A stretch of 64,000 nucleotides of DNA from Rickettsiales bacterium. Its GTDB lineage: Bacteria > Pseudomonadota > Alphaproteobacteria > Rickettsiales > UBA3002. The DNA lies in the NCBI GenBank assembly GCA_046154225.1, contig JBJXEM010000006.1, forward strand, positions 46,124-110,123. Direction: 5' to 3'. The stretch's first letter is position 1. Every line of letters begins with the position of its first letter. The notes under the pieces are model-generated. The model was not told the DNA's origin. It saw only the letters and a program-made list of their open reading frames with translations, and did no database searches. Below, in pieces: positions 3,032 through 60,843 of this stretch. The position numbers were made by a program, and so were the translations under genes.

Positions 3032-4845
3032 CCATTCGCCGCCTACCGCAAACGCTGGTGAACCAGATTGCCGCCGGGGAAGTGATTGAGCGCCCGGCCT
3101 CGGTGGTGAAAGAACTGGTCGAGAACGCGATTGATGCGGGCGCGACCGACCTCGACATCGCGCTCGAGCAAGGCGGCGTGACCCTCATCCGCGTGCGCGA
3201 TAATGGGCGCGGTATGGGGCCGGGCGAGCTGCCCCTCGCCATCGAGCGCCACGCCACCTCGAAACTGCCCGACGACGATTTACTGGCGATTCACCATCTC
3301 GGTTTTCGCGGCGAAGCGCTTCCTTCCATTGGCTCCGTCGCGCGCCTGACACTCAGTAGCCGCGCCCGTGGGGCCGCCGAGGCATGGAGCCTGAGCGTGG
3401 AAGGCGGCCACGTGCAGCCGCTGATGCCCACCGCCATGAGCGAAGGCACGCTGGTGGAAGTGCGCGATTTATTTTACGCGGTGCCGGCGCGGCTGAAATT
3501 TTTGAAATCGTCGCGCAGCGAAATCAATGCGGTCGTCGACATCATCGAGCGGCTCGCCATGGCTCACCCCGACATTCGCTTTCGCTTGAGCCACGATGGC
3601 CGCGCGTTGCGCGACTTTCCAGCCCTCACCCGCGATTTTTTAAGTGCGGGGCCCGAACGGCTGGAGAAAATCATCGGGCACGGATTCGCCGCCAATATCG
3701 CTAGCATCGACATGGAGCGCGAGGGCATTCGCCTGACGGGCTTTGCGGGCCTGCCCACGTTTCACCGCGCCACCTCGCAGTCGCAATATCTGTTCGTCAA
3801 CCGCCGCCCGGTGCGCGACCGGCTGCTGCTCGGCGTCATTCGCGCGGCCTATCAGGATTACCTCGCGCGCGACCGCCACCCCGTCGCCGTATTGTTTTTG
3901 GAAGTGCCGGGCGAGCAGGTGGATGTGAATGTCCACCCCGCTAAATCCGAAGTGCGGTTTCGCGATGCGAATGTGGTGCGCGGCCTGATGATCACCGCCC
4001 TGCGCCATGCCATTGGTGCCACCGCCCAGCGCGCGAGCACCACGGTGGCCGATGCGGCGCTGCAGGCGTTTCGCAGTGAGGGTTTAGGGTCTAGGGTTTG
4101 GGGTATAGAAAATGGCGTGCGGCCCCAAGTACTTTCCAATTCAACAACAGAATTTGCTGCACCGAATGCTGCATTGTGGCGTGGTGAACAATTGCCACCG
4201 CAGCATCGTTCTGCTGAGTCAAAATCATCGCACACTAACCCCTATACCCTAAACCCTAGCCCCTCATTCCCCCTCGGCGCTGCCGTCGCGCAGTTGCACC
4301 ACACCTACATTGTGGCACAAACCGCCGATGGGCTCGTCATCGTCGATCAACACGCGGCGCATGAACGGCTGATGTACGAGAAATTCAAGGCCGAACTGGC
4401 GGGCGAAGGAGTGCCGCGCCAAATGCTGCTGCTGCCTGAAGTGGTGGAGTTGAACGAGGCCGAAGCGCACCGCCTGCTTTCGCGGGCGGAGGAATGGGCG
4501 AAGCTGGGGCTGCTGCTGGAGCCATTCGGCGAGCGCACCGTGCTGGTGCGTGAAGTGCCCAGCATGTTTGGGGATGGCGACATTGCAGGGCTGGTGCGCG
4601 ACCTCGCCGAAGAAGTAAGCCTCTATGCCGAAGGCCTTGCGCTGGCCGATAAACTTGAAGCCATTTTAAGCCGCATGGCCTGCCATGGCAGCGTGCGCGC
4701 CGGGCGGGTCCTGAACCTCAACGAAATGAACGCCCTGCTGCGGCAGATGGAAGCGACGCCCTTCAGTGGCCAATGCAACCACGGACGGCCGACTTACGTT
4801 TCGCTCGCGAAGGCGGATGTCGAAAAGCTGTTTGGGCGGCGATGA
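3028..4845 (+). CDS. mutL: DNA mismatch repair protein MutL (605 aa) carrying a repeat-derived in-frame segment in the linker
   Basis: GHKL ATPase N-terminus (VNQIAAGEVIERPASVVKELVENAIDAG, DNGRGM). C-terminal endonuclease/dimerisation motifs (DQHAAHERLMYE, ACHGSVRAG). GTG 3028 overlaps the pgi stop (GTGA). The 2716 start in the track is frame read-through inside pgi. Confidence 0.9.
   Translation: MTIRRLPQTLVNQIAAGEVIERPASVVKELVENAIDAGATDLDIALEQGGVTLIRVRDNGRGMGPGELPLAIERHATSKLPDDDLLAIHHLGFRGEALPSIGSVARLTLSSRARGAAEAWSLSVEGGHVQPLMPTAMSEGTLVEVRDLFYAVPARLKFLKSSRSEINAVVDIIERLAMAHPDIRFRLSHDGRALRDFPALTRDFLSAGPERLEKIIGHGFAANIASIDMEREGIRLTGFAGLPTFHRATSQSQYLFVNRRPVRDRLLLGVIRAAYQDYLARDRHPVAVLFLEVPGEQVDVNVHPAKSEVRFRDANVVRGLMITALRHAIGATAQRASTTVADAALQAFRSEGLGSRVWGIENGVRPQVLSNSTTEFAAPNAALWRGEQLPPQHRSAESKSSHTNPYTLNPSPSFPLGAAVAQLHHTYIVAQTADGLVIVDQHAAHERLMYEKFKAELAGEGVPRQMLLLPEVVELNEAEAHRLLSRAEEWAKLGLLLEPFGERTVLVREVPSMFGDGDIAGLVRDLAEEVSLYAEGLALADKLEAILSRMACHGSVRAGRVLNLNEMNALLRQMEATPFSGQCNHGRPTYVSLAKADVEKLFGRR
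4080..4264. repeat. heptamer-array palindromic element (GGGTNTA units) located inside the mutL reading frame
   Basis: Left arm GGGTTTAGGGTCTAGGGTTTGGGGTATAG (4080-4108). Right arm TAACCCCTATACCCTAAACCCTAGCCCC (4236-4264), the inverse orientation of the same unit. Same arm type as the intergenic copy at 20128-20208. Boundaries are good to a few nt. Confidence 0.8.
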
Positions 4846-5668: not shown

Positions 5669-7339
5669 TCAATGCCGAAAATGCCTCGTACACGTCATCA
5701 GCATGGCGATGCCGTGTTTCTTGGCAGCCGCGATGACTTCGGCGTCGCGCACTGAGCCGCCGGGCTGGATGAGGAGGGTGATGCCGGCAGCAGCGGCGAG
5801 CTCCACATTGTCGGCGAAGGGGAAAAATGCATCCGATGCTAAGGTCGCGCCGCGCGGGTCGTGCCCATGCTGGCGGGCTTTTTCGATGGCGATGCGCACG
5901 GAATCGACGCGCGACATTTGCCCGGCGCCAACGCCGATGGTGGCGCCGTTTTTCACCAGCACAATGGCGTTGGATTTGACGAATTTGACCACATGCCAGG
6001 CGAGGGCGGCATCGGCCATGGCGCTGGGATTAAGGGGGCCGCCGCTGGCTTGCGTCCATGCGCTGGCGGGGGTGGAAGTGCGGTCTTGCTGCTGTACCAA
6101 ATACCCACCGCTGATGGCCTGAATCATCCACCCAGCTAATGGCGAAGCGTGGGTTTCAGGCTGGCACACGAGCAGGCGCAGGTTCTTTTTTGCGGCCAGT
6201 TTTTCGCGCGCTTCGGCGGTGAATTCCGGCGCGACGATGACTTCTAAAAACAAACTGCCAATGGCCTCGACTAGTGCCACATCCACCGGTTGGTTGACGG
6301 CAAGGATACCGCCGAAGGCGCTGACGGGGTCGGACGCTAGGGCTTTGATGAAGGCGTCCACGGCTTTCGCGGCGATGGCAACGCCGCACGGATTTGCATG
6401 TTTAATCAGCACGGCGATAGCAGTTTCGTTAGCGACAGCATAACTGCTGGCAATCGCCCACGCCGCATTGGCATCGGCGAGGTTGTTGTAGCTGAGTTCC
6501 TTGCCTTGCAGCTGCTGCGCGTTTGCGATGCCGCCTTTGGCATCGAGCCGGTTGTACAGGGCGGCCGACTGATGCGGGTTCTCGCCGTAGCGCAGGGGTT
6601 GGCCGAGTGCGGCGTCGAGCAAGTAGGCGGGGAAGACTCCTCCCCCCATCGGGGGGAGGTTGGGCCTGCCGTCCGAAGCCTTGGCGTAGGATGGTGGGGG
6701 GCTGCCATGAGGCGCAGAGCTTGGTTCAGCCCCCCACCTAGCCCCCCCCCGATGGGGGGAGGAATTACCGAGCCAACTACTAATCAGTGTGTCGTAGCTG
6801 GCGCAGCGGGCGAAGGCTTTGGCGGCGAATTTTTTGCGTTCGGTGAGGGGGACAGCACCGCCATTTTGCTGCAGCAATTGTTGCAGCATTTCGTAGTCGG
6901 CGACATCGACCACGACGGTGACAGATTCATGGTTTTTGGCGGCCGCGCGAATCATGGCGGGGCCACCGATATCGATGTTTTCGACCAAATGGTCGTAGTC
7001 GGTGGTGGCGTTCAGGGTGGTTTCGAACGGGTAGAGATTCACCACCAGTAAATCGATCATGCCGATATTGTGGGCGTTCGCAGATTGCATATGCGAGGGC
7101 TCGCTGCGCCGTGCCAGCAACCCGCCATGGATGGCGGGGTGCAGGGTTTTTACGCGCCCGTCCATCATCTCGGGGAACTGCGTCACCTCCGCCACATCGC
7201 GCACGGGGATGCCTGCTTCCGCGAGGGTTTTAGCGGTGCCGCCGGTGGAAAGCAGTTCGATGCCTTGTGCCACCAGAAAATGCGCAAACGGAATCAGCCC
7301 GGTTTTGTCGGAGACGGAAAGAAGCGCGCGGCGGATCAT
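5669..7339 (-). CDS. purH: bifunctional AICAR formyltransferase / IMP cyclohydrolase PurH (556 aa) with a repeat-derived in-frame insertion in the interdomain linker
   Basis: N-terminal MGS-like domain (ALLSVSDKTGL, MDGRVKTLHP). AICARFT domain (LRYGENPHQ, KHANPCG, GAGQMSRVDS, C-terminal MTCTRHFRH). An extra segment of about 43 aa (NSSPHRGGARWGAEPSS...PPMGGG) lies between ISSWLG and VFPAYL. Confidence 0.92.
   Translation of the reverse strand: MIRRALLSVSDKTGLIPFAHFLVAQGIELLSTGGTAKTLAEAGIPVRDVAEVTQFPEMMDGRVKTLHPAIHGGLLARRSEPSHMQSANAHNIGMIDLLVVNLYPFETTLNATTDYDHLVENIDIGGPAMIRAAAKNHESVTVVVDVADYEMLQQLLQQNGGAVPLTERKKFAAKAFARCASYDTLISSWLGNSSPHRGGARWGAEPSSAPHGSPPPSYAKASDGRPNLPPMGGGVFPAYLLDAALGQPLRYGENPHQSAALYNRLDAKGGIANAQQLQGKELSYNNLADANAAWAIASSYAVANETAIAVLIKHANPCGVAIAAKAVDAFIKALASDPVSAFGGILAVNQPVDVALVEAIGSLFLEVIVAPEFTAEAREKLAAKKNLRLLVCQPETHASPLAGWMIQAISGGYLVQQQDRTSTPASAWTQASGGPLNPSAMADAALAWHVVKFVKSNAIVLVKNGATIGVGAGQMSRVDSVRIAIEKARQHGHDPRGATLASDAFFPFADNVELAAAAGITLLIQPGGSVRDAEVIAAAKKHGIAMLMTCTRHFRH
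6639..6762. repeat. G/C-hairpin-bounded palindromic element inside purH
   Basis: Terminal near-palindromes CCTCCCCCCATCGGGGGGAGG (6639-6659) and CCCCCCCCCGATGGGGGGAGG (6742-6762). Internal 11-bp stem GTGGGGGGCTG/CAGCCCCCCAC. Boundaries are approximate. Confidence 0.75.
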
Positions 7340-9231
7340 GCGGCGGCCTGCTCGGTTTCGGGTTGGTATTCTGCTACAATGCGCTTGAGTAGTTGGCGCA
7401 TGGCTTGGGCGTCACCCTCGCGCGCGCGCTGCAGCAATTCGCGCAGGGCAGCGAGGATTTCAACGCGCGCTAAGGTGCGGGCACGGGCCAGGCGGATCGA
7501 CTGGTGCGAAGTGGGCATTAAATTTTCCGCGTCGTGGAACAATTCCTCGAACAGTTTTTCGCCGGGGCGCAGGCCGGTGAAGGTGATGGGGATGTCGTCG
7601 TAAGGTTTCAGCCCGGCGAGGCGAATCATCTGGCAGGCCAGCTCTTCGATACGCACGGGGTTACCCATGTCGAGCACGTAAATCGGTGCGCGGTCGGCCT
7701 CGCGGCTGCCCAGTACCGCGGCCTGCAACACCAGCTGCACGGCCTCGGAAATGGTCATGAAATAACGCACCATGTCTTTGTGGGTGACGGTAACCGGGCC
7801 GCCGCGCGCGATTTGTTTTTGAAACAGCGGCACCACCGAACCCGCCGAATTTAGCACGTTGCCGAAACGGACGGTGATGAAGTGGGTTTTTGCGCCGTCC
7901 TGCGCCAGCATCTGGCCGTAAATTTCGGCGGCGCGTTTGCTGGCACCCATCACGCTCGTAGGGTTCACCGCCTTGTCGGTCGAGATTTGTACCATGGCGG
8001 CGACACCGTGCGCCACGCAGGCATCGGCCAGTTGCTTACTGCCCAGCACGTTGGTGAGCACCGCCTGATCGGGGTTCGATTCCGACAGCGGCACATGTTT
8101 GATGGCAGCGGCATGGAATACGATTTCGGGGCGGAACATGGTGAAGGCGCGGCCCAGCTGGTCGATGTCGCGCACATCGCCCAACACCGCGTATCGGCGA
8201 AGGGTGGGCACCAGTTCACCCAGCTCGTGGTCGATCTGGTAGAGATTATATTCCGACTGTTCGTAAAGCAGCATTTCCGATGGCTGCAGGGCTGCGACTT
8301 GACGCACCAGTTCGCTACCGATGGAACCGCCGGCACCGGTAATCAATACGCGTCGCCCGGTCACAAATTCACGCATGGCGGGGCGGTCGAGCTCGGCTTG
8401 CGGGCGACCTAAAATATCTTCCACCGCCACCGGGCGAATGTCGTGCAGCCGGTCGCCGCTTTTCAGTTCGCCCATGTTTGGCAGGCGTGAAAGCGGCAGT
8501 TGGTGCGCGTGGGCGACGGCCAGCAGTGCGTTGAACTGGGTGCGCGGATAGTCGCTGTCGGCGATGATGATGCGACGCGGGCTGCGGCCTTTGCGTGCCA
8601 GCTTGCGCAAAATGTAATCGACTTCGCCGCTATGGCCGTAAATGCGCACATGGTGGATTTCGCGGCCGTGCTGGCGCGGGTCGTCGTCGATGAGGCCGAC
8701 GGCTGCGTAGGGGAAATCGGCGTTGCGCTCCGACTCGCGCAGGAACAGTTCGGCTTGCGCCGTGGCCCCCACCACCAGCACCGGCGTGCGGTTTGAGGGC
8801 CGCCCCATCAGGCGCGCCATCAGCGCCCGGTCATGCGCGAGGCGCCATAGCACGCGCCCGGCAGTCAGGCACAGCATCAGGGTCATCCAGTGAATGTAAG
8901 GCACCGAGCGCGGCAGGTTCTCAAGCCGGGTGAAGCCGAACATGCCGAGGTAGAATAGCAGTAGTGCCACGGTACCCGCGCGGGCGATAATCATCAGGTC
9001 CGACAGCGTGCAGTAGCGCCAGACATGGCGGTAGGTGCGGTAATACACCAGCACCACCAGCATCACGAGTGCGAAAGTGGCCGCCCCCTCGATACGGTAG
9101 CCTTGCGTATGCACCAGCGTGCGGTCGCCCAGGCGCAGGTAAAGCGCCAGCAGGAAACTCAGCGATGCCATCGCCATGTCGTGCAACAGGGCGAGCATAT
9201 TGCCAGAGGGGCGTTTAAAGGGCAGGCGCAT
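7336..9231 (-). CDS. polysaccharide biosynthesis protein, CapD/WbpM/PglF-type membrane-anchored NDP-sugar dehydratase/epimerase
   Basis: Four N-terminal TM helices followed by a Rossmann domain (VLITGAGGSIGSEL) and a short-chain dehydrogenase-like C-terminal part. Length 631 aa is typical of this family. Confidence 0.8.
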   Translation of the reverse strand: MRLPFKRPSGNMLALLHDMAMASLSFLLALYLRLGDRTLVHTQGYRIEGAATFALVMLVVLVYYRTYRHVWRYCTLSDLMIIARAGTVALLLFYLGMFGFTRLENLPRSVPYIHWMTLMLCLTAGRVLWRLAHDRALMARLMGRPSNRTPVLVVGATAQAELFLRESERNADFPYAAVGLIDDDPRQHGREIHHVRIYGHSGEVDYILRKLARKGRSPRRIIIADSDYPRTQFNALLAVAHAHQLPLSRLPNMGELKSGDRLHDIRPVAVEDILGRPQAELDRPAMREFVTGRRVLITGAGGSIGSELVRQVAALQPSEMLLYEQSEYNLYQIDHELGELVPTLRRYAVLGDVRDIDQLGRAFTMFRPEIVFHAAAIKHVPLSESNPDQAVLTNVLGSKQLADACVAHGVAAMVQISTDKAVNPTSVMGASKRAAEIYGQMLAQDGAKTHFITVRFGNVLNSAGSVVPLFQKQIARGGPVTVTHKDMVRYFMTISEAVQLVLQAAVLGSREADRAPIYVLDMGNPVRIEELACQMIRLAGLKPYDDIPITFTGLRPGEKLFEELFHDAENLMPTSHQSIRLARARTLARVEILAALRELLQRAREGDAQAMRQLLKRIVAEYQPETEQAAA

Positions 9232-18954: not shown

Positions 18955-20121
18955 TCAACGCAGCACTTGTTCGATTAGGGCGTTGAGCAACAGGCTGCCG
19001 CGCGGGGTGGCACGCAGGCAATCGTTGGTTGCCTCCAGCAATCCCTCGTCCTGTAAGCGCTGCAGGCGACCATCGCGCCACAGGTTCTCAAGGTAAGCAC
19101 GTTCGTCGGCGCGTAAACGGCCGAGGGCGATGCCCTCGTGCAGCCGCAATCCCATCAGCACCGTTTCCTCGGCGCGTTCGGCGACGCTGAGGGGTGTTTC
19201 CTCCTCCAGCCCGTGGCCCATTCGCTCCACCTGCTCCAACCAACGCTCGGGCGATTTCAAGTTGCGGGTGGCCAGTCTTTGCGGGGGACCGAGTAAGCCC
19301 GAAGCAGGAACGTCTACCCGCCCATGCGCCCCGGGGCCGATGCCGAGATAGGCTTCGCTGCGCCAGTAGCAAAGGTTGTGCTGACTTTCGTGCCCGGCGC
19401 GTGCGTGGTTCGAAATTTCGTAGGCGGGCAGCCCCGCTTCTTCCATCACCCGTTGCGTTAACGCATAAAATTCGGCGGCGAGTTCTTCGCTGGGCAGGGT
19501 GAAGGCTTTGTCGACATGGTAGGCGTGGTGGAACGCCGTGTTTTCCTCGATGGTGAGCTGGTAAAGCGACAGATGGTCGCGCGCGAGCTTAAGGGCGGCG
19601 CGCAATTCCTGCTCCCAGCCCTCCAGCGTTTGGCCGGGAAGGGCGTAAATCAGGTCGAACGTGTAGCGCGGGAATATTTTTTGCGCGAGGGCAATGGCGG
19701 CGCGTGCTTCGTCGGCCGAATGTTCGCGGCCTAAAAACGCGAGTGCTTCAGGCCGCAGTGACTGGATACCGAGCGACAGGCGATTCACCTCCGCCGCACG
19801 CAACTGCACGAATTTTTCGGCTTCGACCGAAGTAGGATTGGCCTCGAGCGTGATTTCCATCGCTTCGTCGTGCGACCATAATTGCTGCGCGCGGGCGATG
19901 AGTGCGGCGGCGGTTTCGGGCGCCATCAGGCTCGGCGTGCCGCCGCCGAAAAACAAGCTGTTCAGCTGAAAATCCGGCACGCGGGCATGCCAGTATTCCA
20001 GCTCGCGCACCAGCGCCGCCCGCCAGCGTGCATGGTCGACCCCCTCGCGCACATGCGAGTTAAAATCGCAATACGGGCATTTCTTTTTGCAAAACGGCCA
20101 GTGGATGTAGAGGGCGCTCAT
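18955..20121 (-). CDS. hemW: radical SAM heme chaperone HemW (HemN-like)
   Basis: CKKKCPYCDF radical-SAM cluster motif near the N-terminus and a HemN_C-like tail. 388 aa. Confidence 0.85.
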   Translation of the reverse strand: MSALYIHWPFCKKKCPYCDFNSHVREGVDHARWRAALVRELEYWHARVPDFQLNSLFFGGGTPSLMAPETAAALIARAQQLWSHDEAMEITLEANPTSVEAEKFVQLRAAEVNRLSLGIQSLRPEALAFLGREHSADEARAAIALAQKIFPRYTFDLIYALPGQTLEGWEQELRAALKLARDHLSLYQLTIEENTAFHHAYHVDKAFTLPSEELAAEFYALTQRVMEEAGLPAYEISNHARAGHESQHNLCYWRSEAYLGIGPGAHGRVDVPASGLLGPPQRLATRNLKSPERWLEQVERMGHGLEEETPLSVAERAEETVLMGLRLHEGIALGRLRADERAYLENLWRDGRLQRLQDEGLLEATNDCLRATPRGSLLLNALIEQVLR

Positions 20122-20127
20122 GGGCAG

Positions 20128-20208
20128 TAGGGTATAGGGTTTAGGGTATAGGGTATAGAGAAGAAACGTAGCTTCCCCTAGACCCTAAACCCTAAACCCT
20201 ATACCCTG
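20128..20208. repeat. heptamer-array hairpin (TAGGGTA/TAGGGTT units) filling the hemW / ORF283 divergent intergenic region
   Basis: Left arm TAGGGTATAGGGTTTAGGGTATAGGGTATAG. About 19-nt loop. Right arm CTAGACCCTAAACCCTAAACCCTATACCCTG. Confidence 0.9.
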
Positions 20209-20214
20209 CGCAGC

Positions 20215-21066
20215 ATGATCGACCATCAAAGCCAGTCTGCCATCATCGAGCTGATGCACGCGAAATACGAAAGCTTGCTGGCCATTGAAGCCGTGTGGGG
20301 CATTCGCCTGCATGAAGGCGACATGCGCCCGCGCATCGAGCATTTTCACGACGCGGTACGGGCCCTCACCTCCGGTTCGGCGAGCCTGTACGATAAAGAC
20401 AGCCGCCTGTCGGTCGAGAACCTCGCCTATGATTTAAGCCAGCTGCGCGGCGTGGCCGATAGGCCGCTGGGCCACGTCAACCGCATCAACGAAAAATCCG
20501 TGGGCACCGCGATTGTGAAGCAGGGCGACGCAGGCGCCAGCGGCCCGCGCATGCCGCCCCAACCCGTGCGCCACCAGCTGGTGAGTGATTATCGCGACTA
20601 CACGGTGTTTTTTGCCGCGTTATTCGCGCAGGCGGCCGACCGCAATTTCCAGTCGCGCGTTGATGAAATCGACAGCGCCGTTTCCGACATCGGCCTCATC
20701 GAGCAGGTGGTGAAGCAGTTGATTGCCGGTAAACTCACCAACGCGCAGGCCAGCGAACAGCTCATGCATGTCGAGCGCGACGATTTACGCGAACGCCTCC
20801 AGACCATGCTCGCACGCAAAACCATGAGCGCGCGCGAAAAGCAGGAAGTGCTGGCGCTGGTTGCGCAAATCGAGCGCGGCATGGCGAAAGAAAAAAAGAG
20901 CCTCGAACAGGCACATCTCAGCTACGCTACCGGTCAACTCGCCGTGTACGAAGACGCGAAGGAAACCGTGAAGCGCCTAGCTGCCGCGGGGCTGAACCTA
21001 GCTGGCAAATTCGTCGAAAACGCAGTACAGGCGGCCCAAGGCCAAGGCAAAGCGCGAGGAATTTAA
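20215..21066 (+). CDS. hypothetical protein (283 aa, predicted helical)
   Basis: Long ORF with codon usage like its neighbours. I recognise no motif and see no signal peptide. Confidence 0.5.
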   Translation: MIDHQSQSAIIELMHAKYESLLAIEAVWGIRLHEGDMRPRIEHFHDAVRALTSGSASLYDKDSRLSVENLAYDLSQLRGVADRPLGHVNRINEKSVGTAIVKQGDAGASGPRMPPQPVRHQLVSDYRDYTVFFAALFAQAADRNFQSRVDEIDSAVSDIGLIEQVVKQLIAGKLTNAQASEQLMHVERDDLRERLQTMLARKTMSAREKQEVLALVAQIERGMAKEKKSLEQAHLSYATGQLAVYEDAKETVKRLAAAGLNLAGKFVENAVQAAQGQGKARGI

Positions 21067-21956: not shown

Positions 21957-21981
21957 ATATATGTACTCCGGTTTGGGTCAA

Positions 21982-22127
21982 CGTCATTGCGAGGCTTGCA
22001 CCTGCATTTCAACCTACTCAAAGATGAAAGGCCGAAGCAATCCAGCTGCTACGCGGCGTTGAAAATGGATTGCCACGGCCTTTCATCGCAGTGCAAGCGG
22101 AGGGCGTATGCATGCCTCGCAATGACG
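21982..22127. repeat. MITE-like nested palindromic element, 146 bp, CGTCATTGCGAGGC termini
   Basis: 14-bp terminal inverted repeats CGTCATTGCGAGGC / GCCTCGCAATGACG. Inner inverted repeat AAGCAATCCA...TGGATTGC. No ORF. Confidence 0.85.
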
Positions 22128-22183
22128 ATGTGGTGAGATTAGTACTTCCCCAGAAAGCTGCAAGTGCCATGTTCGCAAAATAC

Positions 22184-22741: not shown

Positions 22742-22753
22742 AGCGTTTTACTG

Positions 22754-22820
22754 TGAGTGGTGAGTGGTGGGTAGTGAGTGGTTCAGCGTCACTACTCACT
22801 ACCCACTACTCACCACTCAC
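22754..22820. repeat. heptamer-array hairpin (GTGAGTG/GTGGGTA units) between rluB and rsmD, overlapping the rluB stop
   Basis: Left arm GTGAGTGGTGAGTGGTGGGTAGTGAGTGG. Loop TTCAGCGTC. Right arm ACTACTCACTACCCACTACTCACCACTCAC. The last four codons and the stop of rluB (VSGE*) lie in the right arm. Confidence 0.9.
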
Positions 22821-23555
22821 ATCAAGTGATTGCATCAGCTTATTCACCTGCGCGTGGGGCACTTCGCGGGCATTGCCGGGTTTGAGGTCGGCGAGTTCAA
22901 ACGGCCCGTAGGCGGTGCGGATGAGGCGGCTGACGGGGTAATCGAAATGCTCGAAAATACGGCGGATTTCGCGGTTCTTGCCTTCGGTGAGGGTGAGGGT
23001 GAGCCACTGGTTGCGGCCGTCTTTCTCGGCTTCGGCCACCACATGAATGGGCTGATAACGAACCCCCTCGATTTCCAGCCCGTTGCTGAGCATGTATAAA
23101 TGTTTGTCGCTCGGCACGCCACGCACGCGCACGCGATAAACGCGCTCCAAGGCATTGTCGGGCAGTTCGAGCTGGCGCGCGAAGCCACCATCCGTCGTGA
23201 GCAGCAACAAGCCTTCGCTGCTGAGGTCGAGCCGCCCGACCGACACGACGCGTGGGAAGTTCGCGGGCAAATGGTCGAACACGGTGTCGCGGCCCTGTTC
23301 GTCACGGTGGCTGACGACGAGCCCCGCCGGTTTGTGATACACCCATAGGCGCGTGCGGGTGGGCGTCTGGCCGATCACTACGCCATCGACCTCGATGCGG
23401 TCAGCAGCAGTGACGAGGGTAGCGGGCGTGTCGAGCGTTTTGCCGTTCACCGCCACGCGACCTTGTCCAATCAACCGCTCGGCATCGCGCCGTGAGCACA
23501 CTCCGGCTGCGGCGATGATTTTGGCGATGCGTTGGGGATTCGTGTCAGCGGTCAT
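22806..23555 (-). CDS. rluB: rRNA pseudouridine synthase, RsuA/RluB family with S4 domain
   Basis: S4-like N-terminus (RIAKIIAAAGVCSRRDAERLI) and catalytic motif GRLDLSSEGLLLLTTDG. Confidence 0.8.
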   Translation of the reverse strand: MTADTNPQRIAKIIAAAGVCSRRDAERLIGQGRVAVNGKTLDTPATLVTAADRIEVDGVVIGQTPTRTRLWVYHKPAGLVVSHRDEQGRDTVFDHLPANFPRVVSVGRLDLSSEGLLLLTTDGGFARQLELPDNALERVYRVRVRGVPSDKHLYMLSNGLEIEGVRYQPIHVVAEAEKDGRNQWLTLTLTEGKNREIRRIFEHFDYPVSRLIRTAYGPFELADLKPGNAREVPHAQVNKLMQSLDVSGE

Positions 23556-23577
23556 ACGTGCGCCAGCCTTTCCACCA

Positions 23578-23724
23578 CGTCATTGCGAGGCATGCACTGG
23601 CCTATCAGCAAACGCGGTGAGCGTTGGCCAAAGCAATCCATCTTCAGCACGGAGTTGCAGATGGATTGCTTCGGCCCCTCAACACTGTGTGCGCGGTTAG
23701 TGTAGCACTCGCCTCGCAATGACG
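23578..23724. repeat. MITE-like nested palindromic element, 147 bp, second copy of the CGTCATTGCGAGGC family
   Basis: Same 14-bp termini and the same inner AAGCAATCCA...TGGATTGCTT inverted repeat as the copy at 21982-22127. Confidence 0.85.
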
Positions 23725-23748
23725 ATGGGGCGGGCGTAGAGTAAAATT

Positions 23749-24769: not shown

Positions 24770-24788
24770 GCCATCAGCTTAGCCGGAT

Positions 24789-24862
24789 CGTCATTCCAGC
24801 GAAAGCTGGAATCCAACTTTTTATTGGCGATGGAATGGATTCCAGCTTTCGCTGGAATGACG
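24789..24862. repeat. MITE-like palindromic element, 74 bp, GTCATTCCAGCGAAAGCTGGAATCC arms
   Basis: Perfect inverted arms CGTCATTCCAGCGAAAGCTGGAATCC / GGATTCCAGCTTTCGCTGGAATGACG. Each arm is itself a hairpin. Confidence 0.9.
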
Positions 24863-24886
24863 AGCGCGAAATGGGTATGCTCAAAT

Positions 24887-24910
24887 CACCACTCACCACT
24901 CACCACTCAC
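24887..24910. repeat. solo heptamer array (CACCACT units) 6 nt upstream of motA
   Basis: CACCACTCACCACTCACCACTCAC is the reverse complement of the GTGAGTG-type arm. There is no partner arm nearby. Confidence 0.8.
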
Positions 24911-36784: not shown

Positions 36785-37260
36785 AAAGTGTTTCAAGTGC
36801 CACCCGGGAGGCGACCGCCGACCCGCGAAAAATCATCCTACGCTAAAGCTACGGACGACGCTCCTTCGCCTAAGGCCGCCTTCGACCGGCGTAAGCCGTC
36901 CGAAGCCGGAGGCGAAGGGCGGTGGGGGGATTCTGTTGCCCAGCTCCCCCCGGGCTGCGTTTACGAGCTAGAGCTCGTCAAGCCACACTAAGCGGCGAGA
37001 CGGGCTGCTACGACGTTGTTGTCGTTAGCTGCAACGAGTGCTACGTTGTCGTTGGCACTTGAAAAGTGATCCGATTATGGGAGATCACCCCAAGCAAAAG
37101 CAGCGCCTTTATTGCGGTTGTCGATGCTAATTCACCCCCACAAAGCCACCGCGTTGCGGTGGCTTTGTGGAGGTGCCGGGCTCTGCCCCCGGGTCCAATC
37201 CGACTATTCCACGATACGTTTATTGCTATAGCCACTTGCGTGACAGTTCTAAATATAAGG
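36785..37260 (-). ncRNA. ssrA: tmRNA (ssrA), circularly permuted two-piece gene: acceptor piece - spacer hairpin - coding piece
   Basis: On the minus strand, ...GGAC-CCGGG-GGCAGAG-CCCGG-CACCUCC-A ends at 37168. A 27-nt hairpin follows at 37141-37167. GGGGGUGAAUUAGCAUCGAC starts at 37139. GGGGGUG pairs with CACCUCC and gives a G3:U pair. The tag frame 37056-36988 reads ANDNVALVAANDNNVVAARLAA*. The outer ends are approximate. Confidence 0.8.
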
Positions 37261-37382
37261 CAAAACGGCCGCGGGTTCAAGCCGCAACTGCGGTCAAAAA
37301 TCGACAATCCGACACGCAACCTTCACGCAACCGTCATCAAACTGTCACATCTGTTTGGTAGGGTGAAGGCTAGGAGAAACCC

Positions 37383-41699: not shown

Positions 41700-41778
41700 C
41701 GTCATTCCAGCGAAAGCTGGAATCTATCGGCTTTTAAAAGTTGGATTCCAGCGCGCGCGGAGCTTGGCTGAAATGACG
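41700..41778. repeat. MITE-like palindromic element (GTCATTCCAGCGAAAGCTGGAAT family), right arm degenerated
   Basis: The left arm is identical to the copy at 24789. The right arm GGATTCCAGCGCGCGCGGAGCTTGGCTGAAATGACG is partly decayed. Confidence 0.8.
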
Positions 41779-43925: not shown

Positions 43926-43985
43926 TGGCGAGGTCTTCTTGCACGTAGGATGAAGCGATTTAATACAGGCTTAAACCTTAAATTT

Positions 43986-44050
43986 GTCATTCCCGCGAAG
44001 GCGGGAATCCACTTTTTTCTTTAGGAGATTCCCGCCTTCGCGGGAATGAC
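43986..44050. repeat. MITE-like palindromic element, 65 bp, GTCATTCCCGCGAAGGCGGGAATCC arms
   Basis: GTCATTCCCGCGAAGGCGGGAATCC ... GATTCCCGCCTTCGCGGGAATGAC. Each arm is a hairpin. Confidence 0.9.
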
Positions 44051-44092
44051 AACATGGATAGGTTGCTGCCAACAGAATAGACAGGGGGAATT

Positions 44093-59703: not shown

Positions 59704-60843
<1,140 letters not shown>

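Follow-up and report, generated by a model that had tools for sequence, protein, structure and literature searches.

A G/C-rich palindromic element in frame in the PurH interdomain linker of a Rickettsiales bacterium, a probable copy of a dispersed repeat with triplex-motif layout

The DNA analysed here, hereafter the window, is a 64-kb stretch (64,000 nucleotides) of contig JBJXEM010000006.1 from a Rickettsiales bacterium (assembly GCA_046154225.1). It contains purH, which encodes the bifunctional enzyme 5-aminoimidazole-4-carboxamide ribonucleotide (AICAR) formyltransferase / inosine monophosphate (IMP) cyclohydrolase, and within this gene a palindromic element occupies the stretch coding for the interdomain linker. 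This segment is, in our view, probably one member of a dispersed family of G/C-rich, non-autonomous palindromic repeats, carried in frame and tolerated. It would end in two inverted triplex-motif units placed head to head; in each, a 9-nt C-arm and a 9-nt G-arm enclose a 3-nt loop, and a second loop separates the G-arm from a mirror G-arm. An earlier reading of the sequence alone (the original prediction) had placed a palindromic element in frame in the PurH interdomain linker, and this was borne out: the element comprises 126 nt, equal to 42 codons, is free of stop codons, and encodes an insert sequence found in 0 of the 120 closest PurH relatives. The extra residues are located between ISSWLGN and VFPAYL.

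The element is built of nested palindromes. Its terminal inverted repeats span 27 nt (6638-6664 and 6737-6763) and are 89% complementary. Each end carries a 21-nt hairpin, and the two hairpins match as reverse complements with a single mismatch, a match never obtained in 100 shuffles; the near-identical terminal G/C hairpins described originally are thus present. An internal stem of 11 bp had also been described. The stem exists and is perfect, but its length is 12 bp (6693-6704 / 6727-6738). As DNA, the element folds at -48.6 kcal/mol (z = -6.3), and the corresponding mRNA strand at -92.1 kcal/mol (z = -6.3), with 0 of 200 shuffles folding as well in either case. Four of the six reading frames are open across the whole element, and all six across the hairpin itself. 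Its limits are defined to within about 4 nt, and would extend to 6635-6766 if the flanks GACT (6635-6638) and AATT (6763-6766) were counted.

The layout of the two units provided insights into the type of repeat involved. In a class II motif as published (Holder et al. 2015), a 3-6-nt loop joins a pyrimidine arm to its complementary purine arm, and a further loop of 1-6 nt leads to a third, purine-rich arm that mirrors the second; the stem has 8-15 nt with at most one mismatch, and the triads are of the types G·G, A·A or T·A. The minus-strand unit, read from 6762 to 6730, is CCTCCCCCC-ATC-GGGGGGGGG-CTA-GGTGGGGGG (as a 33-mer, CCTCCCCCCATCGGGGGGGGGCTAGGTGGGGGG). Arranged as 9-3-9-3-9, it scores 8 of 9 triads, has one T.G in its stem and by this definition is a G/C-rich class II intrastrand triplex motif. 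This is the sole occurrence of the 9-3-9-3-9 class II motif in the window, and none appeared in 20 shuffles. In the plus-strand unit, the third arm GGTGGGGGG forms 9 of 9 purine-motif triads with GGGGGGAGG, but the second loop has 33 nt, against a published range of 1-6 nt. This long loop contains a small hairpin of its own (-9.3 kcal/mol). With starts at 6639 (+) and 6762 (-), the units are arranged as a head-to-head pair with the third arms innermost; the inner stem is the pairing of these two third arms with one another.

Related units were detected in many other genomes. A scan with the pattern CCTCCCCCCATCGGGGGG, covering one genome per species, returned 112 stretches from many phyla. In 72 of 114 hairpin units (56 of them perfect), the third arm scored 8 or more of 9 triads and lay within 1-6 nt, compared to 9 of 2360 controls. 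Seven further units had their third arm 13-33 nt away, often with a small GC hairpin in the loop (controls, 23 of 1180), and the long-loop unit of the window is therefore a recognisable variant. When variants with unlike arms are compared, changes in arm 2 go along with changes in the third arm and mirror symmetry is maintained, as in the pairs GGGAGAGGG with GGGTGAGGG, GGGAGAAGG with GGATGAGGG, and GGGGGGAGG with GGTGGGGGG. This pattern suggests that what is conserved may be the ability to form a triplex or the process that creates the units.

One homologous copy is a complete 97-nt pair in the stretch L066 (7316-7412), which shares 81% of 96 aligned positions with the window element. It occupies an unlinked site without a Pfam-supported gene, in a metagenome-assembled genome (MAG) labelled 'uncultured Azospirillum sp.' (CAZZCK01). 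The same MAG also encodes a PurH relative (P0046), and the two PurH proteins are 68% identical. In a second related MAG, a contig begins within another copy (L015). Pairs of like architecture were also found in Sphingomonas arantia, S. montana and S. prati. Both ends of the window element (6635-6664 and 6737-6766) match repeats from distant phyla exactly over 27-30 nt, AGTC/GACT flank included. These included stretches from Chloroflexales/Oscillochloris (L002, L007, L019, L112 and others) and from Rhodospira (L010), as well as L058 and L045. Such identity across phyla could be due to horizontal spread, to convergence under structural constraint or to a shared enzyme. Flanks that recur among the copies are AAT(T) at one end and AGTC at the opposite end. 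Judged by sequence homology, the purH element is a member of a dispersed repeat family with homologous copies at unlinked loci, and the insertion proposed in the original prediction agrees with the unlinked copy in L066 and with ends that are common to many genomes.

Table 1. Location of purH and of the parts of its palindromic element in the window. L066 is the stretch that holds the homologous 97-nt pair.
Feature	Position	Strand	Details
purH, bifunctional AICAR formyltransferase / IMP cyclohydrolase, 556 aa	5669..7339	-	Open reading frame, Pfam, invariant columns, AlphaFold2
Whole palindromic element, 126 nt, 42 codons, S193-G234 of PurH	6638..6763		27-nt terminal inverted repeats; alignment with L066
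Terminal hairpin, plus-strand unit	6639..6659	+	CCTCCCCCCATCGGGGGGAGG, 21 nt; C-arm 6639-6647 CCTCCCCCC, loop ATC 6648-6650, G-arm 6651-6659 GGGGGGAGG
Second loop of plus-strand unit, long (33 nt)	6660..6692	+	
Inner 12-bp stem, left arm	6693..6704	+	6693-6701 = GGTGGGGGG, mirror-repeat third arm
Central loop, 22 nt	6705..6726		Loosely resembles centre of L066 copy
Inner stem, right arm (6727-6738), with second loop	6727..6741	-	Third arm GGTGGGGGG = 6738-6730; loop CTA = 6741-6739
Terminal hairpin, minus-strand (mRNA-sense) unit	6742..6762	-	CCTCCCCCC ATC GGGGGGGGG

The host protein is intact. Both Pfam domains were detected (MGS, the MGS-like IMP cyclohydrolase, at 14-127, and AICARFT_IMPCHas at 133-487), and inspection of the invariant alignment columns revealed that every family-invariant residue is present. 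Exact look-ups of this PurH and of the CapD-like protein of the window found neither on record, and the best PurH relative displays 73% identity. A MAFFT alignment with 120 relatives showed that the linker, measured from ISSWL to [FW]PxYLLD, has 45 aa in the window compared to typically 8-9 aa, as in TGASGDSP. In the same alignment, the segment was conserved in no relative lacking the hairpins. A match to the PurH of M. tuberculosis (PDB 3zzm) was broken in two at this point, covering query residues 2-193 and 248-556. In an AlphaFold2 model built from a 46-sequence alignment (mean predicted local distance difference test, pLDDT, 89; predicted template modelling score, pTM, 0.83), the insert is placed between the last helix of domain 1 (165-193) and the first strand of domain 2 (243), with both flanking domains confident. 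Residues 194-238 are modelled as coil, with pLDDT below 50 at 198-220 and 226-233, and the approximately 42 G/P/S/A-rich residues of the insert are probably disordered. Hence, the segment has the attributes of an in-frame intragenic palindromic insertion: it is absent in orthologues, its length is a multiple of three, it is stop-free, it lies in a linker, and the host protein is intact.

PurH of related bacteria also varies in this linker. Orthologous loci share a conserved synteny (GDH, a 240-aa protein, a CapD-like protein, PurH and MutL, in this order); at the linker site, the linker is short in L113, and L114-L116 hold unrelated inserts. PurH relatives (P0008-P0092) have inserts of 8 aa or more, which recur at some five places in the protein (profile positions ~115, 196-200, 265-269, 382-388 and 394). 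Several of these (e.g., GCVAEGEPR..., RVASHGEPRSEGVSGEAAKGG and LKRALSPTLPLTAAVS; L114, L115, L116) match other dispersed repeats in their own contigs. The purH linker site of relatives holds fragments of other repeat families. The lineage of the window is unusually permissive to inserts, and the length of the PurH linker is free to vary there. The original prediction had noticed neither these other families at the PurH site of relatives, nor the triplex-motif units, nor a 30-nt extra segment within the long loop, discussed below.

Another way to obtain a long linker would be the expansion in place, through slippage or duplication, of native low-complexity linker sequence, with an accidental palindrome and no repeat family behind it. 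Linker length does vary in the clade, as about 15 of the 120 relatives have additional residues at this site. The 30-nt segment 6663-6692 is unique, and its peptide AKASDGRP bears a weak resemblance to the usual linker TGASGDSP. The homologous copy at an unlinked site in L066, however, largely refutes an in-place origin. The exact sharing of the element ends among many genomes, the nested palindrome with its fold z-score and the 9-3-9-3-9 layout, absent from the shuffles, also speak against it. We hold in-place expansion to be very improbable.

Some observations weigh against the dispersed repeat as an explanation of the segment, or against a simple version of it. The segment 6663-6692 (30 nt, 10 codons, SYAKASDGRP) is missing from the L066 copy and has no homologue in the sequences compared; given the long-loop copies elsewhere, a variant unit is at least as likely here as displaced native linker. 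Outside the element, the only native linker residues left are G191-N192 and V235, compared to the usual 8-9. The native linker is apparently partly missing, and the event was therefore not a clean insertion. Neither a word-indexed search with the 44-45-aa insert nor an exhaustive phmmer search of 1.84 billion representative proteins found a similar peptide, and given this result, this exact PurH insertion event is unique. The hairpin has one copy within the window, each of the two related MAGs contains the exact 18-mer a single time, and the family is, as far as seen in the window and these MAGs, low-copy in this lineage. Finally, the term triplex motif describes here a sequence layout and not a demonstrated structure.

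Copies of the repeat were also found within other genes. We surveyed the 112 loci for long open reading frames across the hairpin and used Pfam to detect domains on both sides. At least 13 loci displayed a copy in frame with Pfam domains on either side in one frame, mostly in linkers. The proteins involved are diverse. They included the E2 component of pyruvate dehydrogenase, with the copy between the lipoyl and E3-binding domains (L003); an E1-beta that carries a lipoyl domain at its N-terminus (L080); CysG, with the copy flanked by the dimerisation and methylase domains (L033); and the helicase Lhr of the cultured Brevundimonas aurantiaca, between DEAD and Helicase_C (L087). Also among them were a fusion of an FAD-monooxygenase with an old yellow enzyme (L091), polyketide synthases of Chloroflexales (L004, L027, L039), a SufS-like enzyme of Prevotella (L005), an epimerase (L024), GalK (L032), an HMG-CoA synthase (L090) and a ResIII helicase (L017).

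The lhr gene of Brevundimonas offered a comparison between alleles. Between PDLIRGWL and LVKGDPGAP, most of 120 close homologues have an empty site. Some homologues carry a single hairpin, CCTTCTCCC-CTTGC-GGGAGAAGG, at this site, and several, including the one in the finished chromosome of Brevundimonas sp. SL130, carry full inverted pairs with long second loops. The flanks of the single-hairpin allele are those of the full pair; this matches the collapse of palindromic triplex motifs (TMs) to a single hairpin reported by Holder et al. (NAR 2015, PMC4666352). The empty, single-hairpin and full-pair alleles (L087, L121, L122, L123) encode proteins that are about 90% identical and belong to a culturable genus.

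These genomes also bear on whether the purH segment might be an assembly artefact, with a G/C-rich repeat misjoined into the gene. Contigs frequently break at the motif (L015, L020, L025, L041, L056, L059), showing that assemblers have difficulty with it. An artefact would nevertheless have to explain an insert of exactly 42 codons that leaves the purH frame open and sits where the two domains meet. Finished or cultured genomes, among them the Brevundimonas sp. SL130 chromosome CP113064 and that of B. aurantiaca DSM 4731, also contain in-frame copies of a comparable kind, and the protein cluster of the B. aurantiaca allele has 188 member sequences. We give a misjoined repeat very little credence.

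Taking the dispersed repeat as the explanation, we propose the following course of events. A copy would have landed in the linker DNA between the IMP cyclohydrolase and AICAR transformylase domains. It would persist because its 126 nt are a multiple of three, stop-free and placed in a length-variable surface linker. The ribosome would read through the element and add the disordered residues to the protein. We infer that the insert is translated and harmless, and we ascribe no selected protein function to it; a length divisible by three, the lack of stop codons and the position in a linker represent a survivorship filter and not evidence of function.

Inspection of four filled sites (the window, L066, L087 and L123) revealed no target-site duplication. 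The flanks at these sites are GGTAAT and GTCTTC in the window (mRNA strand), GGAAGC and ACGACA in L066, TTCAAT and ATTTGG in L087, and CGAATT and GGTTAT in L123. The repeat would most likely spread by a process that depends on hairpins or single strands and leaves no target-site duplication. Candidate routes are an enzyme of the HUH or REP-associated tyrosine transposase (RAYT) type acting in trans, and template switching or illegitimate recombination at stalled forks. Cut-and-paste transposition of the DDE type is less likely. We favour the hairpin or single-strand route because of the missing target-site duplications, the recurrent flanks and the lack of a transposase near the related TMECO repeats of Escherichia coli (Holder et al.).

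Alternatively, the element might be useful to the cell, with an mRNA hairpin that pauses ribosomes or serves as an RNase III or decay site tuning PurH, or with a longer tether that alters the coupling of the domains. The mRNA structure is very stable (-92 kcal/mol), it is placed exactly at the PurH domain boundary, and similar elements recur in the interdomain linkers of other enzymes. A tolerance filter would, however, itself produce this linker bias. Related copies are found in unrelated proteins and between genes, presence or absence varies among close relatives, and the peptide is conserved nowhere. A scan of 6300-7100 yielded no promoter-like or terminator-like sites, and earlier work cited in PMC4666352 found no promoter or terminator activity of PIT/BoxC. 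A useful role of the element seems to us unlikely.

The insert might also never reach the mature protein, being removed or skipped as an intein, as an intron or by ribosomal bypassing. Ribosomal bypassing is known from the GC-rich 'byp' elements of mitochondria, and a compact G/C hairpin inside a coding sequence resembles such bypass elements. The 126 nt and 42 aa are, however, far below the size of inteins or group I/II introns, and there is no take-off codon with a stop codon behind it. Rfam gave no family at the gathering threshold for the element, and at E<=10 it gave only chance hits to microRNA-like hairpins. Furthermore, the frame and its openness are kept here and in at least 13 other genes, which skipped elements would not need. 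On the grounds of size, missing motifs and preserved frame we rejected intein, intron and ribosomal bypass, and consider removal or skipping extremely improbable.

Among known systems, the element most resembles the BoxC/PIT/TM repeats, described in earlier work by Bachellier and by Hoyne/Maher, cited in PMC4666352. TMECO follows the pattern CCCTCNCCC N3-6 GGGNGAGGG N3 GGGNGAGGG; in E. coli K-12 MG1655 it is reported to be always intergenic, and Holder et al. found no transposase nearby. In vitro, a TMECO triplex formed on the isolated strand only, and no stable triplex was found in double-stranded DNA or in vivo (PMC4666352). The likeness to BoxC/PIT/TMECO lies in the 9-nt C-arm, 3-6-nt loop, 9-nt G-arm, 3-nt loop and 9-nt mirror G-arm, and in head-to-head inverted pairs that span 85-130 bp. 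In the BoxC pair between hrpB and mrcB of E. coli (L120, 250-335), which we read directly, the units are likewise head to head with the third arms innermost. Both are G/C-rich, widespread and highly conserved motifs with no associated transposase known, and both display local instability, with pairs collapsing to single hairpins (cf. Brevundimonas lhr). The window element differs in its arms CCTCCCCCC / GGGGGG(A/G)GG / GGTGGGGGG, which do not fit CCCTCNCCC...GGGNGAGGG...GGGNGAGGG, in having one unit with a 33-nt second loop, and in being intragenic and in frame in purH rather than intergenic.

As an event, the insertion is reminiscent of the Rickettsia palindromic elements (RPEs), in-frame palindromic repeats in Rickettsia genes (summarised in PMC10969869). 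Both are palindromes of 100-150 bp in frame in unrelated alphaproteobacterial housekeeping genes, with a peptide compatible with fold and function. RPE families, in contrast, encode conserved peptides, whereas the window peptide is without relatives among the proteins searched. RPEs are not described as triplex-motif pairs, a distinction that is drawn from description and not from sequence comparison. Their host also differs, as the window comes from a GC-rich genome of free-living type and not from Rickettsia.

Repetitive extragenic palindromic (REP) sequences of the GTAG/CGTC type and their dimers are a further parallel, with in-frame copies inside genes of several phyla (Di Nocera et al. 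2013, PMC3733652), and REPs mobilised by RAYT belong to the same comparison. Like REPs and REPINs, the window element consists of short hairpin repeats of a kind that occurs singly or as head-to-head or tail-to-tail dimers, without target-site duplication. Intragenic REP dimers encode 20-30 residues and were judged neutral in modular proteins. The GTAG/CGTC tag, however, is absent from both hairpin feet of the window element, where the recurrent flanks are GACT/AGTC or AATT; GTAG occurs in the element only at 6685-6688, within the 30 additional nucleotides of the long loop. REPs also lack the mirror-repeat third arm. MITEs (miniature inverted-repeat elements that depend on a DDE transposase) resemble the element in size (~100-130 bp), in having terminal inverted repeats, in being non-coding by themselves and in being able to make in-frame fusions. 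The purH element differs from MITEs in lacking target-site duplications at the four filled sites and in its ends, which are self-complementary hairpins; no parent insertion sequence is known.

In-frame palindromic insertion as a type of event and BoxC/PIT/TM as a type of unit are thus known already. What is new is an arm sequence off the TMECO pattern, a long-loop unit and an intragenic in-frame position unseen in the E. coli work. Our search of the literature, of incomplete coverage, found no paper on intragenic triplex-motif repeats.

Other repeats occur in the window and in related contigs. The original prediction had proposed that two different repeat families have each colonised an enzyme linker. 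The mutL element (4079-4104 and 4232-4257, +) does belong to a different family, with inverted arms of an AGGGTWT / CCCTAAA-like heptamer, and is in frame in the MutL linker. Its arms flank conserved native linker residues (W-R/G-x-x-x-LPPQHR), and 4079-4257 is therefore not one simple insertion. A palindrome of the same heptamer family is found at 20112-20224. A second heptamer family forms (GTGAGTG)n ... (CACTCAC)n palindromes at 22752-22821, 60774-60843 and 24886-24910, and SPLTTHHS, TTHDS and SHQSPV, which occur as inserts in the PurH and MutL of relatives, are translations of GTGAGTG-related repeats. Perfect 26-28-nt palindromes of the form CGTCATTCC(A/C)GCGAA(A/G)GC(T/G)GGAATC are present at 24788-24863, 41700-41724 and 43984-44052, as well as in L066 at 7711-7786; the match between the copy at 43984-44052 and L066 is 92%. 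A repeat of ~120-160 nt with GCCTCGCAATGACG ends has two copies 1.6 kb apart (21979-22142 and 23577-23739). The window also encodes a two-piece (permuted) alphaproteobacterial tmRNA (36921-37284, -; 196.7 bits), which assigns the DNA to the Alphaproteobacteria.

In L066, the copy of the purH repeat is nested between inverted heptamer-repeat arrays (7150-7520; GGTGCTG/CGTTGCT ... ACGACTC), and repeats of different families seem to gather in the same places. A metagenome scan with the over-specific pattern GCCCCCCACCTARCCYCCCCCCGA found three loci only, in unrelated and partly AT-rich organisms. Two AT-rich contigs of the Joint Genome Institute (JGI) metagenome Ga0180009 (L117, L119) contain the GCCCCCCACCTAACCTCCCCCCGAG motif within larger local repeats, and the motif is therefore not restricted to GC-rich genomes.

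The interest of the purH element comes mainly from the wider pattern that it indicates. BoxC/PIT/TM motifs have been known since the 1990s, and their function and spread are still unexplained. The purH pair, the in-frame cases in at least 13 other loci and the lhr allelic series provide natural events of gain, loss and collapse that can be dated and dissected. They indicate that triplex-motif repeats can lengthen protein linkers, as the Rickettsia palindromic elements do. For genome annotation, G/P-rich protein stretches such as 'PPMGGG / SPHRGE / LPPSGG' can be recognised as footprints of the repeat. Based on these findings, we tentatively postulate, as a reading that falls slightly short of an even call, that BoxC/PIT/triplex-motif palindromes form a class of copied or unstable DNA that spans phyla and settles again and again, in frame, in the linker-coding DNA of housekeeping genes. 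If true, this would represent an RPE-like route of protein-linker evolution that extends well beyond Rickettsia.

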